In this document: piece after piece, positions 36,001 to 42,000 of the stretch
Layout: each line of letters begins with the position of its first letter
Position numbering within the stretch: position 1 is the stretch's first letter
Made by a program: the position numbers
Origin: Bdellovibrionota bacterium
Lineage (GTDB): Bacteria > Bdellovibrionota > UBA1018 > CAIPTA01 > JAALKR01
NCBI GenBank assembly: GCA_965207455.1
Contig: CBDBMJ010000001.1
Coordinates: forward strand, 288,001 to 352,000
Length of the DNA stretch: 64,000 bases
Direction: 5' to 3'

Positions 36001-39000
36001 TCCTGCAGGTAACCAGTTCGCACCAAAAGATAGCGAGAATATATACCGTATTTGGGCTCAACATGAAGGAATCTTTGATGACGACGTAACCTTAAAGGAA
36101 TGTTTCTTTACGGGTGTTGTTTTTGAAAATACAGCTCCGCCATCGCAGTTACGGTAAATTGCTTTCGTGGAGAGCAAGCAGATCCACCAGGACTAGGGCA
36201 GCCATTGCTTCCACAATGGGAACTGCTCTTGGTAGGGGAAATAGATCATGGCGTCCTTGTACGGAAATGATTGTTTCCTCTCCTGTTTGCATATTAGTAC
36301 TGGCAATGGGTTGGGGAATGCTTGTGGGGGCATGAAAGTCGACGGAAAGCCATAGAGGGTTTCCCGTGGTCATGCCACCTAGGAGTCCACCGTGACGATT
36401 TCCATCTATTTTTAATAGCCCCGTTTTACTTTTTACAATGGGATCTCGAATCATGGATCCTGGTCGATAGCTCATCTTCTGACCTCCACCCAATTGCACT
36501 CCCACAGTGGCAGGTAAGGTCATCATGGCATGGGCAAGCAGTGCACTGGCTTTGTCGAAAATAGGTTCTCCCAGTCCTGGAGGAAGCCCTTGCACCCAAC
36601 ACTCCACAGCCCCGCCCAAGCTATTTTTTTCTTCCCTAGTTCTTATTAAAAGTTCTTCAAAGGGTTGAATATTGTCGATGGGAAGGCAGAGCTTGTTGTT
36701 TTTTCTATGGGCATCGATTCGTGGCCATAGGTCTTGGGTAAGTTCTCGGGTTTCGTGGAAGGGAATTTCCTTACGGGGAACCTGCATTTCTCCAATGCGG
36801 GACACGAACGCTAGGATTTCAATATTTTTCCTGCTTAGAATTTTCTTTGCAATGGTAGCTCCAGCAACTCGAGCCACTGTTTCCCGGGCACTAAGCCTTC
36901 CACCGCCGCGAAAGTCCCGATGGGAATGTTTTTTTTGGGTGGTGAAGTCTCCATGACCGGGTCGGGGAGTATGTTCAAACTGAGTATAGTCTTGGCTATG
37001 GGTATTTTGATTTTTTATGACTAGGCTGATGGGAGTGCCCGTGGTTTTTCCTTGAAATACACCGCTTTGTATATGTACTTCGTCCGTTTCTTTTCTTGTC
37101 GTGCTGTATGCATTTTGTCCTCCACGCCTGCGGTTCATGTCTTTCTGAAAATCTTCTTGGGTGAGAGGAATTCCGGAGGGACAACCGTCCACCACAACAC
37201 CGTTAGCGGCACCATGGCTTTCTCCCCAAGTGGTAATTCGAAAAATGCGACCAAAACTATTTCCCTTCATACGATCCCCCTATTTCCTTCTGCTTTTATA
37301 TAGCATATACTAAGTGGTTAGGGGGAGGGTATGGAATGAAGGTCTGCGTTACAGGGAAAGAGAGTTCCTCTGAGGCGATATACCATCGTTTAGCAGGGGT
37401 ACTAGACTCCTGTGATCAATCCCTTTGTGAAATACGTTTGGACTACTGTGATTTTTCTCCACAGGAGGCTTTAGATTTTTTACAAGCCCTTCCTGAAAAG
37501 TGGTGTTCACGTCTTATAATTACTCAGCGACGGAAGTATGCGGGATCTGCTTCTGGGTGCACCTGGGACCACAAAACTTGGCAAGAGTGGTGGCAAGCCG
37601 CTCTTGTTTTGCAAAACTGGTATGTTGGAGATTTGGATTGGCAAAAGGGTAGGGACTGGGGTTTTCTTCCCCCTGATGCTAACGTATTATTTTCCTACCA
37701 TGGTTCCATTGAGGCCTTGGATCGGGATCGTTCGACGCTTGTTCAAGAAGCAAAAAAATTTAATGCTGGTATTAAAATAGCGGCTCCTGTTCATAGTGCA
37801 GAGGATTTAGCTCGTCTTGCTAAAATAAGAGCTAAGATTCCTTCCTCGTTCCATCGTCCTGTGGTTGCAGTGGCCATGGGTATTGTTGGAAGGGCTTGGC
37901 GTTGGTCTCAGTCCTTAGCTGGCGACTGGTCTTATTTTTCTTTTACCCACGAGCTTCAGACAGATGCTGGGCAATCTTCTTGGCAAGAGCTTCGTCCCTT
38001 TCTTTCAAAAATAAAAACGAAGCCATCATGGCCTAAGCTCTATATCCTATGGTGCATGGACTGCAAAAATAAAAAAGGGGAAGAGTATTGGAATTCTTTT
38101 TTTCTATCCCATGGTCTTCATAGTCGTTATATTTCTATTCCTTGTGACGGGTCTAAGGCCACAGAGCACTGGAAAACGGCAGCGCTATTTTGGATGGAAA
38201 AGGCAGGTGTGCATGGAGCGAGTGTCACTCGTCCTTTTAAGGAATTGATGGCCCAGGGGTCTGGCTTGCCTGCTGTGAACACGGTCACTTGGAGTTCCGA
38301 CCGAAAATGGAATTTTGCAGACACGGATGGACGTGCCGTGCTCGATCTTTTTCCAGACTCTCCCCGGGTTGGAATCATTGGTGGTGGAGGGGCAGGTAAG
38401 GCTGTTGCCCATGCTTGTGCTATGGAGAAAATTCCATATTTTATATGGCGTCGAGATGGGGGTGGTTTTTTAAAAAAACTTGAGTCTTCTCAGCAGTGGA
38501 ATATATTTGTTTCCACTTGGCCGGGAGAAGAGCAACATATATTAGTTTCGCAGTTGGAGGCTAGGTTAAGCTCTCGAGAGAGAAACAACATTCAGTGTAT
38601 TGTGGACGCTCAATTTTATTTGTCGGAAAGTCCTCTTGCGCACTTTTGTAAAAAAAATAATATTACCTATCTATGGGGAGACAAGTGGTGGATGGGGCAA
38701 GCCCGGGGACAAGCACTCCACTGGTTTCCCCGTCGACACGTATTGACTGAACTTAAGGAATATATTCCCCGTTCGAAAAGTGAAACCATTCGTGCCCTTG
38801 CCATTGCCTCCCTTTTTCCAGGGAAATGGACTATCCAGGAGCCCTCAGTATGTGACGATGTTATTTATTTTCGTGAAGCCATGGAAGCTCTTGGTGTGCG
38901 CATAACGGAGTGCCACGGGCTTCAAGTACAATCTTCCGGTAATTTAGTGGCTCCCAAGACACCTATTTTTGTGGGAGAGTCGGCCACTGCTCTACGGTTT

Positions 39001-42000
39001 TTAATGGTTCTTGCTTGTGTGATGAAAGGGGAGAAGCTTATCGTCGATGCTGGACCGTCTTTGCGAACCCGTCCCTTAGGAGATTGGTCTTCGTCGAAGG
39101 TATGGCCGTTGGAGATTCCTGTTGGGGGTTTCCTCGAGGAGATTTCTGTGGCGCAAACCAGTCAATTTGCCTCTGCCGGTCTTATCGCTGCTGCGGGAAA
39201 GATGTATTCCTCTGGGGAAAGTCAATCCATTTGTGTAAAAGATAGCTGGCATTCCTTTCCCTATTTCTCATTGACGAGAAAAATGCTTAACGACATGGGA
39301 GTGGCAGTGGTGGGAGACAATCCATTTACCATTCCTGTTCAAAAAAATATTTCTCCAAAAAATATACCCATTTCCTTGGATGCCTCGGCCCTTTCTTATT
39401 ATGAAATTTTCTATCGCTATTACCACAAGAAATCTCTTTATACGGAATATGCAGTGAGTTCTCAGGGCGATGGGAAATTTCCTGTTTTTTTAGATGATTT
39501 AATCCAGTGTGAAAAGGAATGTCGCATTTCCTTAACTGATCATCCGGACTTAGCTCCCAGTCTATGGGCAGCCGCTATCTTATTCCAGAAAAAATTGACG
39601 GTTCACTCCACCCCACAGCTTTGCCATAAAGAGTGTGATCGTAGTGATGCTCTTGTGGTGGCAGCTAAAAAACTATCTCTTCCATCAGAAGTTATTGACG
39701 GTGGTTTTTATGTGGATGGTGGTGGAGGAAATAAAGCTCAAGCAATTACTTTGGACACCCGAGGAGATCATAGGTTAGCCATGGCCTTTGCGCTGGTACA
39801 AACCAAGTGGCTGAAGACTCGGATCAATAACCATCAATGTGTGGAAAAATCTTTTCCCCGTTTTTGGGAAGGGCTTTCTTTTATGAAGAAAACAATCGAA
39901 TGCTAAACCTCTCCATTGTTTTAATAGGATTTCGATGTGTGGGTAAGACCACTGTAGGAATAGAATTGGCAAAAAAATTGAACCGGAATTTCATAGACAG
40001 CGACGCTTTGCTGGAGAAAAAATTAGGAATGCCGTTATGGAGATTTGCTCGAGAAAAAGGGCTTTCTGAGTTTCGACACCAAGAGGGAGCTTTAATACAA
40101 ACACTCATGAAAAGAACCTCAAATAAAAATCATGTAATAGCACTGGGTGGCGGTTTTGTGGACTGGGCTCCTTCTTTTGATACTGTCTTTCAGTCGAAAA
40201 ATTTTAGAATCCATATAGAAATGAATCCCAATGATTTATGGAAGCGAATACAGGAAGAAGACAAACATTGGGTGAGTCCCCTTCCCACTAAGGAAATATT
40301 TACCATGCTGTTTATGGAACGTCGGAGAAAATTCCAAGCGCTATCCCACAATGATATTTTATGCTTAGGAAAAAAACCCGTAGATATAGATAGTCTTCTT
40401 ATAGATGATTGATTAGGATTCTTTCCCACTGGGCTTTTTCCCAATGAAAATCCAAGATACACCCAAGTTAAGAGCAAAGGGAGTAAAAGCAATAAAACCC
40501 TCTTGGAAGAGCATCTCTCGCACTGCTTTGGGTTCAGGGAACTCCTGTATGGATTTTGCTAAATATTTATAGGATGTTTTAGAGGACAGGAGTCCAGCAA
40601 GCGTAGGCATTGTTTTATTTAATAGGGCGCTATAGATGGTGCGAGATATCCCCGGGTGGGGAAGACCCAACTCTAAAATAGCAAGCACACCTCCTGGTTT
40701 TAACACTCGAAAGGTTTCTTGGAGAGCTTTTTCCCGTTTCTCCACATTCCGAAAGCCAAAGGCAATGGTGATGAGGTCCATGGATTGGCTGTCCTGCTCA
40801 ATGTCCTCTGCCCGTCCTTCTATCCAGTCAATGCTAGCAGCAAACTTTTTTTTCTGTGCTTCCACTAGCATGGCTTGGTTGGGATCTGATGCCATTATCT
40901 TTGCTTGCGGCCACCACTGATGGGCTAGGCGAGCGATATTGCCCGTTCCACAGGCAAGGTCTAGGACAGTAGTGGGCTTTTTACCTAGAGCCGATTCTGC
41001 GTTCTTGAGGAGGGTACGGCGCCACTTCAGATCCTGTCCCATGGTCATCATGGTATTTAAAAGTTCATACCTGGGGGCTACTTTTGTGAAAAGGTCGATG
41101 GGATTATTTTCCGTGTCCATATAAGTATAGAAATACCAAGGCTAGCAGAGGAAAGGAAGCAAAAGATGCCTTTTAGGAGAATTTCCACACTACATGATGT
41201 TGCCAAGCACCTGAACTCGCAGTTTACAGGGCGTTAAAAAGCAATAATCTTGCCAAGGTTGGGCAAGCTTGATGGTTGGAATCTTTATTTTACCGTTGGG
41301 GAAAAAACTTAATCCCACAGATTTACAGCCACGGGTAAAGTCTTGGTAATGGACGAGGTATCCATTGATCCAAATGGCTATCAGGTACACGTTATAGGGG
41401 AGTCCCACGATGTTGGGACCAGTGGGGTAGGCAAGCTCCAAGTTCATTTCTCCCTCTATGGCAGAAACACTCAACTGGGCTTCGGTGGAGAAGGATTCAA
41501 AAAAGTTTTTTGCTTTTAGGTTCATTGTAGCGGAGAGCTCACCTGTTTCGGGTAGTAGTTTTTCATGTCGAGACTGGGGCACCTGTTTTAGGCACTCCAT
41601 GGCTGCATGGGTGTAGGTAGGGAGAAGCAGGAAAAATACGAAGAAAAATAATAATCTCATGGTTATAAAAGGGTTCGGCGGCTGGGGGGCTTTTCTTTAG
41701 TATTATTTTGACGCTCAGCCCATTTTTTTAGGAAAATTCAATAAAAACAACAAGATTGAGGTTTTTTTCCTTATATGCGACTGCGTGATTCACTCAAAAA
41801 AATCAACAAAGAGCATTAATCTCTGGACTTTCTCACGTTTTAATGCTATGCTTCATTTTCGGTGGTAGAAATACAGAGTGGAGTGTAATAATGAAAAAAA
41901 TAAGGAAAATATCCATTTTTTTGGTCCTACCCTGTTTCCTTTTTTCCTTTCTTGGTCAGGCAGAGGAGACAGGACAGGTAGTACTTGCTAGGGAACTTTT

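Follow-up and report, generated by a model that had tools for sequence, protein, structure and literature searches.

A single polypeptide encoded in the Bdellovibrionota genome studied herein is likely to perform shikimate-pathway steps 3, 4 and 6, with a type I 3-dehydroquinate dehydratase (DHQase), a diverged shikimate dehydrogenase (SDH) and an EPSP synthase (EPSPS) following one another in one frame of the window (the whole 64,000-nt stretch of DNA analysed; Table 1). That frame, which runs from an ATG at 37336 to a TAA at 39904-39906, exists as proposed in the initial annotation, with its DHQase I and EPSPS domains recovered by translation and Pfam, and the full-length protein's AF2 model has a pLDDT of 90.1 and a pTM of 0.74. 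Activity is predicted from features that are directly observed, namely the homology and fold of the three domains, the invariance of their catalytic positions, their being unique in the genome and a gene order kept in relatives. The earlier reading of the fusion as catalysing three steps is supported, in that domains for all three are present and each is the sole candidate genome-wide; its novelty, as detailed below, was overstated.

Table 1. Features of the fusion locus and of the related pathway gene in the window (positions count from the first nucleotide of the window)
Feature	Position	Strand	Basis
Fusion gene, 856 aa (P0001), DHQase I / SDH / EPSPS	37336..39906	+	ORF list, translation
Type I 3-dehydroquinate dehydratase domain, residues 1-223	37336..38004	+	Pfam PF01487, PDB profile matches
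Divergent shikimate dehydrogenase domain, residues 224-476	38005..38763	+	TIGR00507, AF2, Foldseek, VIA-align, hhalign
EPSP synthase domain, residues 477-856	38764..39903	+	Pfam PF00275, TIGR01356, Foldseek
aroK, shikimate kinase gene	39900..40412	+	Pfam SKI, E 4.1e-24
aroC, chorismate synthase gene, upstream of and divergent from the fusion gene	36149..37270	-	PF01264, E 4.3e-114
Divergent intergenic region, 65 bp	37271..37335	.	Read directly
MenG/UbiE quinone methyltransferase gene, convergent with and abutting aroK	40413..41120	-	TIGR01934
aroB, 3-dehydroquinate synthase N-terminal domain match	1806..2147	-	PF01761, E 1.6e-33

With regard to the remainder of the genome, six-frame searches located the aroE family inside the fusion ORF alone, in line with the earlier remark that no SDH gene is called elsewhere, within an assembly that is 94.7 % complete, a figure that bears on the absence of a second aroE. 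The same searches revealed no second type I DHQase (aroD), no type II DHQase (aroQ) and no second aroA, the only other PF00275 gene being MurA. Isochorismate synthase is the only chorismate-using enzyme found in the genome, and neither chorismate mutase nor prephenate dehydratase nor anthranilate synthase was detected there. Taken together with the adjacent MenG/UbiE gene, this suggests that the pathway is kept only for quinone synthesis, and that it probably supplies only isochorismate for menaquinone.

The N-terminal domain belongs to the type I DHQases, as it passes the Pfam gathering score (PF01487, DHquinase_I, residues 14-221; E 9.8e-12, 45.9 bits against a cut-off of 22.2) and harbours both the Schiff-base lysine and the catalytic histidine. 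A profile built from eight sequences of the domain matches six type I DHQases of known structure, with 2ocz (E 7.2e-6) ranking first, and the counterparts of K147 and H122 in 2ocz and 2egz lie in the V-K-I-A and S-x-H motifs. These two residues, along with E32, R34, D36, R65, R189 and Q213, are invariant in 30/30 aligned homologues. What the domain lacks is a glutamate to partner the catalytic histidine: the position four residues beyond R65, which we take to be Glu86 of type I DHQase, is A69 in the window protein and serine in 26/30 homologues, whilst Glu or Asp occupies it in the nearest related group. On this account, and as a search of the PDB with the single domain sequence gave no match, the DHQase might be impaired and the protein bifunctional in practice. 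This is unlikely, however, given that K147 and H122 never vary, that the Pfam cut-off is exceeded, that the genome offers no other DHQase of either type, and that conservation among the three domains is highest here (60.8 % mean pairwise identity). In work of 2013 by Light and co-workers, moreover, Glu86 mutants of type I DHQase reportedly retained substantial activity.

The middle domain is a true but diverged SDH homologue. The initial annotation had noted that this segment had no family call, which holds for Pfam (Shikimate_dh_N scores 13.1 bits at E 0.12, the cut-off being 27), and its PDB search was reproduced exactly, the sole matches to residues 214-480 being 2hk7 at E 0.0015 and 2hk9 at E 0.0016, with 92 residues aligned. 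Its proposal of a very divergent SDH is nonetheless borne out by a curated family model, by the predicted fold and by invariant catalytic residues. The NCBIfam model TIGR00507 (aroE) matches residues 243-468 across model positions 10-256 of 270 (E 2e-8), and matches 30/30 homologues at E ≤ 0.001 (best 7.5e-22). The score of 33.7 bits lies far below the curated cut-off for AroE proper, 200.2, a threshold that no genome among the order's 11 reaches. A profile of the domain matches 37 PDB sequences, every one from the SDH family, led by the SDH-like protein HI0607 (1npy; 2e-15) with the best AroE a small margin behind (4e-13). Comparison by hhalign with canonical aroE from the same class yields a probability of 97.9 % (E 4.4e-13), leaving the first 45 residues unaligned. 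The AF2 model of the domain (pLDDT 88.9) displays the two-subdomain alpha/beta architecture of the family, with a substrate-binding part and a Rossmann part. Its best Foldseek match is 2hk9_B (E 1.2e-14), and VIA-align superposes model residues 8-246 onto residues 1-251 of H. pylori AroE (4foo_A) with Z 21.4 and an rmsd of 2.9 Å over 224/257 residues; all 50 entries among the matches listed belong to the SDH family.

Seven positions of the domain, K302, N315, D331, G349, G351, R373 and Q455, are invariant in 30/30 homologues. K302 lies in a VT-x-P-x-K motif and D331 in an NTD motif, and the two form the Lys-Asp dyad, presumably K65/D102 of E. coli AroE. The dinucleotide loop reads G-G-G-G-A-G at 349-354, and R373 follows strand beta-2, where an arginine forms part of the NADP-type 'NRT' motif. 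The N-terminal H-S-x-S-P motif, which in canonical AroE binds the shikimate carboxylate, and which canonical aroE from the same class retains (alignment A5), is replaced by N245-K-K-G248-E249. Two segments are shorter than in canonical aroE, the first separating the Lys motif from the Asn motif and the second following R373.

Such drift leaves room for two further readings of the domain. It could be active, but not as a standard AroE, being instead a slow SdhL-like enzyme, a quinate/shikimate enzyme or an NAD-using form with an altered pocket, as the top profile match to HI0607, the replaced carboxylate-binding serines and the structures of YdiB, Ael1 and 5-ketofructose reductase (Z 18.8-19.9, near the 21.4 of AroE) would allow. 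This appears decidedly unlikely for the sole SDH-family gene of a genome that keeps aroB, aroK, aroC and isochorismate synthase, encoded moreover between the step-3 and step-6 enzymes and bearing the invariant arginine that resembles the NADP-type motif. Alternatively, the domain could be a dead SDH-like spacer, with step 4 performed by an unrelated reductase or shikimate taken from prey. Scores below every curated cut-off, the lost serine motif and the deleted segments are in keeping with this, and a precedent is known from C. albicans Aro1 (PMC9074039), whose inactive DHQase domain has lost its catalytic His and is accompanied by a back-up enzyme. The parallel fails on both counts, as the 30/30 homologues here, despite only about 50 % identity across the domain, all retain the catalytic Lys and Asp, the glycine loop, the Arg and the substrate-binding Asn and Gln, and no back-up was found in any of the order's 11 genomes. 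The domain is also as conserved as the EPSPS (49.6 and 47.9 % mean pairwise identity, respectively), and a dead spacer is therefore very unlikely.

For the C-terminal domain, membership of the EPSP synthases follows from Pfam score, fold and active site. PF00275 (EPSP_synthase) matches from residue 477 (E 6.3e-31, 108 bits against a cut-off of 22.8), TIGR01356 matches at E 4.1e-45 with 154.3 bits, which is below its cut-off of 287.25, and Foldseek aligns the domain with 3nvs (E 1.1e-22, TM 0.76 on the target) and with liganded EPSPS structures at TM 0.74-0.76. Thirteen active-site positions (K481, R486, R579, S609, Q610, D738, K765, E766, R769, D811, H812, R813 and K838) are invariant in 30/30 homologues. 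An assembly or gene-calling error uniting separate genes is an exceedingly improbable origin of the fusion, as nothing was found in its favour, and the same stop-free frame occurs in 8 genomes of the order, and uninterrupted in 28 independently sourced full-length proteins.

The neighbouring genes are those named in the initial annotation, with both aroC and the shikimate kinase found by Pfam. The aroK frame may start at 39837 or 39900, and the likely ATG, at 39900, overlaps the fusion gene's final codons (...GAATGCTAA...), four bases before its TAA stop; the alignment of the product shows P-loop and GGG motifs. The aroC product also matches NF003793 above cut-off (384 bits), and the MenG/UbiE product scores 200.6 bits with TIGR01934 against a cut-off of 158.35. 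A G-rich, Shine-Dalgarno-like run precedes the ATG of the fusion gene, and a consensus scan of the divergent intergenic region found no promoter-like site. The aroB coordinates in Table 1 are those of the domain match only (contig 289806-290147), which lies inside a 357-aa open frame. Amongst relatives, aroC is upstream in the same position and orientation in 7/7, a kinase gene is downstream of the fusion in 6/7, and the MenG/UbiE neighbour recurs in two (L086 and L091).

From this arrangement a route to chorismate can be proposed. The DHQase would produce 3-dehydroshikimate using Schiff-base K147 and H122, and the diverged SDH would reduce this to shikimate with NADPH, with K302 and D331 as putative catalytic residues, the glycine loop holding the cofactor and R373 contacting its 2'-phosphate. 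The separately encoded kinase, possibly co-translated with the fusion by way of the overlapping start codon, would phosphorylate shikimate, after which the C-terminal EPSPS would add enolpyruvate and the chorismate synthase from the adjoining aroC would complete the pathway; any channelling between these sites is likewise conjectural.

The fusion is less widespread than had been claimed. A homologue search recovered 28 full-length proteins (841-895 aa) with 34-40 % identity at 98-100 % coverage and one more of 893 aa at 26 % identity, where the initial annotation counted 29. Conservation across Bdellovibrionota is not supported: a sample of 301 genomes of the phylum yielded the full-length fusion in just the 8 that belong to the window's order, with the other 116 matching genomes doing so via a separate aroA only. 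For each of the order's 11 genomes, the sole aroE match sits inside the fusion frame. Nor is the architecture unique, as 20/23 more distant clusters scanned have the same domain order with an SDH that Pfam recognizes (DHquinase_I, Shikimate_dh_N, EPSP_synthase), one cluster being an 835-aa protein from a Chlamydiota MAG (NCBI MGM0439864.1). Three (P0052, P0061 and P0068) also carry a C-terminal shikimate kinase, where aroK stands here. The family of the window protein is set apart by a long stem (1.09 changes per site, SH-aLRT 100), and is a fast-evolving, diverged branch of a wider, existing DHQase-SDH-EPSPS fusion family, for which no published description was found in the literature searched. 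The distant proteins are named only 'EPSP synthase' by their sources.

Sister families of the same class (L128), as well as P0057 and P0064, carry the order EPSPS-SK-DHQase-SDH in one chain, of which DHQase-SDH-EPSPS followed by a translationally coupled SK would be a cyclic permutation; the final four domains of AROM are arranged in this single-chain order too. It is conceivable, albeit doubtful, that the bacterial multi-enzymes constitute one evolving shikimate 'supergene' family that duplication and loss have rearranged and that is kin to the eukaryotic AROM precursor, and that the window enzyme and its kinase act as a four-step metabolon feeding menaquinone only.

The fusion matters mainly for annotation. 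Due to the failure of Pfam and the curated NCBI models to detect the SDH domain, pathway reconstruction would report step 4 as missing in this order, and where only the EPSPS is called step 3 would also be reported missing, such that a broken shikimate pathway would be wrongly deduced; a family-specific model would cure this. By their sources, the fusion proteins are named only EPSP synthase or DHQase. Beyond annotation, the domain demonstrates how far an SDH can drift with its catalytic core kept, having lost the serine motif and two segments, and the three-step architecture (four-step in kinase-fused relatives) joins the list of shikimate multi-enzymes.

Compared with known systems, monofunctional AroE (H. 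pylori 3phi/4foo, Aquifex 2hk9, E. coli 1nyt) matches the SDH domain in fold (Z 20.2-21.4, rmsd 2.9-3.3 Å, 223-227 residues) and shares its Lys/Asp dyad, Asn, Gln and glycine loop; the domain differs in its 17-22 % identity, absent serine motif, two shorter segments and position between two enzymes. AROM, or Aro1 (6hqv, 7u5s), also unites DHQase I, SDH and EPSPS in one chain (model match E ~3e-20; Z 19.2 for its SDH part). The order in AROM is DHQS-EPSPS-SK-DHQase-SDH, whereas the window protein is without DHQS and SK, which are separate genes here, and has its EPSPS last, and thus is not an AROM; P0057 and P0064, with domains placed by Pfam, are AROM-ordered. As to the claim of an order unlike that of fungi and plants, the first two domains are the known plant/chlamydial DHQase-SDH. 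In the plant enzyme (Arabidopsis 2gpt, 2o7q, 2o7s, 6bmb) a type I DHQase is likewise followed directly by SDH. The corresponding module of the fusion superposes on it at E 1e-21 over 508-514 columns (TM 0.64-0.66), and the fusion-family profile matches 2gpt across 126-464. The bacterial AroDE model NF006802 (PRK09310) similarly matches 30/30 members, with the window protein scoring 31.5 against a cut-off of 598 bits. From both the fusion differs in its additional C-terminal EPSPS, and in an SDH without the serine motif and two segments. The unnamed DHQase-SDH-EPSPS proteins have the same domain order, are collinear with the fusion over its whole length in one HMM stretch and share its catalytic residues, the difference being that the SDH of the window's family escapes Pfam.

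In the gene under study (see the table), Pfam recognises a type I dehydroquinase at residues 14-221 of the encoded protein (E 9.8e-12) and an EPSP synthase starting at residue 477 (E 6.3e-31), with only a sub-threshold match to Shikimate_dh_N (E 0.12) lying between them. The initial annotation's description of two domains joined by a segment without a family call is therefore borne out for Pfam. The overlapping start and stop of aroK and the fusion gene suggest that the two are translationally coupled; a complex prediction for the EPSPS part (residues 470-856) with the kinase (score 0.00, mark 0.32) speaks neither for nor against binding. 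A promoter consensus scan returned 5 sites against a mean of 7.6 in shuffled sequence, with none in the 65-bp divergent region between aroC and the fusion gene, and Rfam detected no RNA family within 34000-42500. Within the final 60 bases of the fusion gene, and just 5′ of the aroK ATG, lies a hairpin that resembles a terminator and has a tail rich in T; it is a consensus match only, in a region with 11 such sites seen against 6.9 expected.

Coordinates of the fusion gene, its surroundings and loci compared with it (window positions unless a handle is given; L, locus; G:C, genome and contig)
Feature	Position	Strand	Remarks
Fusion gene	37336-39906	+	Uninterrupted ORF, 856 codons, ATG start (ORF list, translation)
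Chorismate synthase (aroC)	36149-37270	-	Divergent, upstream of fusion gene
Shikimate kinase (aroK)	most likely ATG at 39900	+	Downstream; ATG 4 bases ahead of fusion gene's TAA
MenG/UbiE methyltransferase	40413-41120	-	Abuts aroK
aroB	about 1806-2147	-	Six-frame scan
Terminator-like hairpin	39850-39873	+
Flanking ORF	34766-36157	+	463 aa; no Pfam family at E ≤ 1e-4
Flanking ORF	41190-41660	-	156 aa; no Pfam family at E ≤ 1e-4
Codon of A550	38983-38985		EPSPS domain
Isochorismate synthase	G000:C3:342309-343598 (L131:510-1799)	+	Window's genome
ORF in place of aroK	L089:978-1491		101 aa; no Pfam match at E ≤ 1e-4
EPSPS-SK-[about 300 aa without family call]-SDH	L128:1956-5345 (G181:C13)	-	1129 aa
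EPSPS-SK-?-SDH	L127:2740-6807 (G284:C118)	+	1355-aa frame
SK-?-SDH	L130:2014-3771 (G112:C4)	+	585 aa
SDH-SK	L129:1966-3366 (G127:C52)	+	466 aa; sited between aroA and aroB

With regard to the middle domain, several concordant lines of evidence support its assignment as a shikimate dehydrogenase (SDH) homologue. The weak PDB match from which a very divergent SDH had been proposed was reproduced exactly (2hk7, E 0.0015; 2hk9, E 0.0016; 92 residues; no others), and the proposal itself is upheld by further comparisons. Positions 10-256 of the 270 in the NCBIfam aroE model match residues 243-468 (E 2e-8), and the bifunctional AroDE model covers residues 113-479. Within an alignment of 30 sequences (the query, 28 full-length homologues and one relative at 26% identity), every one scores E ≤ 0.001 against the aroE model (best 7.5e-22), and just three reach E ≤ 0.01 for Pfam Shikimate_dh_N. 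A domain profile built from eight genomes of the order matched 37 PDB sequences, all from the SDH family, led by 1npy (2e-15) and then 2hk7 (4e-13), and when profiles were compared with each other, canonical aroE of the class's other families gave a probability of 97.9% (E 4.4e-13) over 191 columns, with the first 45 residues left out of the alignment. An AF2 model of residues 224-480 (pLDDT 88.9, pTM 0.85) retrieved by Foldseek, among the matches listed, only SDH-family structures, from E 1.2e-14. VIA-align superposed it on H. pylori AroE with a Z of 21.4 and an rmsd of 2.9 Å over 224 residues in both subdomains, and all 50 of the listed entries are SDH-family members. Neither PDB profile nor VIA-align scores discriminate between SdhL, YdiB and AroE. 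Every SDH score is far below the curated cut-offs (33.7 against 200.2 bits for aroE), hence the domain was missed by annotation.

Six-frame scans of the whole 2.38-Mb genome (three contigs, 94.7% complete) found the fusion ORF to be the sole aroE-family match, in keeping with the earlier observation that a separate aroE is missing, and revealed neither a type II dehydroquinase nor a second type I enzyme. The one other PF00275 gene is MurA (TIGR01072, 7.5e-162). An aroE hidden in the missing 5%, as the initial annotation had cautioned, is unlikely, because the order's 11 genomes, 76-97% complete, all have their only aroE-family match within the long fusion frame, split over two partial frames in one fragmented genome; none of the 11 reaches the aroE cut-off. 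Two DAHP-synthase-family genes are present, one of them presumably a KDO8P synthase. The chorismate-binding family has a single gene here, for an isochorismate synthase (TIGR00543, 266.6 bits, above cut-off); searches of the genome detected no chorismate mutase (CM_1 or CM_2), no prephenate dehydratase and no chorismate lyase. Together with the MenG/UbiE gene beside aroK, this suggests that the shikimate pathway is here retained for menaquinone synthesis only.

The protein is most probably an active trifunctional enzyme, which would perform steps 3, 4 and 6 of the pathway on one chain with the coupled kinase as its partner. Invariant in all 30 aligned sequences are K147 (Schiff base), H122, R189 and Q213 of the DHQase, K302, N315, D331, G349, G351, R373 and Q455 of the SDH, and 13 active-site positions of the EPSPS; mean pairwise identities over the 29 close members are 60.8, 49.6 and 47.9%, respectively. 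The roles of these positions are presumed from alignment to solved enzymes and from E. coli and Salmonella numbering. An impaired DHQase, which would be compatible with the other alternatives, is improbable, K147 and H122 being conserved throughout. In favour of impairment, the residue four places past R65 is Ala in the window's protein and Ser in 26/30, where the closest related group carries Glu or Asp. A single-sequence PDB search with this domain gave no match, an eight-sequence profile being needed to find any. That the SDH has an altered substrate or cofactor is quite improbable. Canonical aroE of the same class carries an N-terminal H-S-x-S-P motif, whereas the fusion has N245-x-x-G248-E249; N245, residue 246 (Arg or Lys in 18/30) and E249 are candidates for taking over the role of that motif. 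The Lys and Asn motifs lie closer together than in canonical SDHs, and the stretch after R373 is likewise shorter; K302 and D331 are retained in every sequence. A dead SDH serving as a spacer is highly improbable; PMC9074039 shows that a domain within Aro1 can be dead where a back-up enzyme exists, and the fusion is the only aroE-family match in this genome.

Turning to distribution, 124 of 301 genomes sampled across the phylum match the fusion query at E ≤ 1e-5, and end to end in eight only, namely the window's genome, the single other member of its family and all six of the order's second family. For the remaining 116 the match is confined to the EPSPS part, and most of the frames are about 380-450 aa long. 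As end-to-end matches are confined to these eight, all of the window's order, the claimed conservation across Bdellovibrionota is not supported. A contig scan with a generic EPSPS peptide pattern returned ordinary aroA loci only. Amongst the seven relatives of the order, aroC is divergent and upstream in all and aroK downstream in six, followed by DAHP synthase in five; a MenG/UbiE methyltransferase follows in two, as in the window. At one locus (L089), the short ORF in place of aroK could reflect a different start, a frameshift or loss. The frame being intact in eight genomes, an assembly artefact joining separate genes can be dismissed.

Beyond the phylum sample, 1.84 billion cluster representatives were searched with a profile of the fusion family; the matches listed include 12 close clusters above 700 bits and many distant proteins collinear from DHQase to EPSPS. 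Pfam found DHquinase_I and EPSP_synthase in 22 of 23 distant proteins scanned, with Shikimate_dh_N also in 20; three (P0052, P0061 and P0068) carry a C-terminal shikimate kinase, in the same place as aroK here. The only one with a taxon, NCBI MGM0439864.1 from a Chlamydiota MAG, is annotated merely as EPSP synthase. A quick maximum-likelihood tree was built from 33 such proteins; in it a single branch sets apart each of three groups, namely the window's family (SH-aLRT 100), a middle group (97) and a far group (98), and the stem of the window's family measures 1.09 changes per site. Since the groups were defined by score beforehand, the tree only describes them. The serine motif follows a gradient in the alignment, being near-canonical in the far group, reduced to one Ser in the middle group and absent from the window's family. 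Seven far-group proteins (P0076, P0101, P0104, P0116, P0125, P0131 and P0142) match DHquinase_I only from profile position ~78-121 to 230, and in the alignment their barrel is shorter in its N-terminal half; reduction or degeneration of the DHQase domain may have occurred in these proteins.

The window's protein is thus a diverged branch of an existing, undescribed fusion family. No account of a DHQase-SDH-EPSPS protein emerged from a search of the literature available, and an earlier one may exist; bacterial multi-domain EPSPS usually have two domains according to PMC9394408, the supplement of which gives domain frequencies only. The initial observation is accordingly confirmed and its SDH reading sustained, whilst its taxonomic breadth was overstated, as was its novelty: the domain order recurs in distant proteins. 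The main value of the finding lies in annotation.

Other families of the same class possess different shikimate fusions (L127-L130). The L128 protein is collinear over its whole length with P0057, an EPSPS-SK-DHQase_I-SDH protein (E 9e-33), and the His and Lys positions of its DHQase-like stretch have no obvious alignment. The last four domains of AROM, EPSPS-SK-DHQase-SDH, have the same order as P0057. In the EPSPS domain of the fusion, A550 (Ala in 28/30) is aligned to a Gly in a loop, 'G-N-A-G-T-A-M-R-P', found in plant and Colwellia EPSPS, and residues 547-556 include Phe where that loop carries Pro; PDB titles describe E. coli EPSPS with G96A or with changes at Pro101 as glyphosate-insensitive or as variants, and the domain may be naturally tolerant of glyphosate. 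In the AF2 model for the entire chain (pLDDT 90.1, pTM 0.74), the EPSPS part has matches among liganded EPSP synthases (3nvs, E 1.1e-22, TM 0.76 on target), and the first two domains jointly match the bifunctional DHQase-SDH of Arabidopsis (E 1e-21, 508-514 columns, TM 0.64-0.66). On these matches, the fusion consists of a two-domain module of the plant or AroDE type to which an EPSP synthase is appended.
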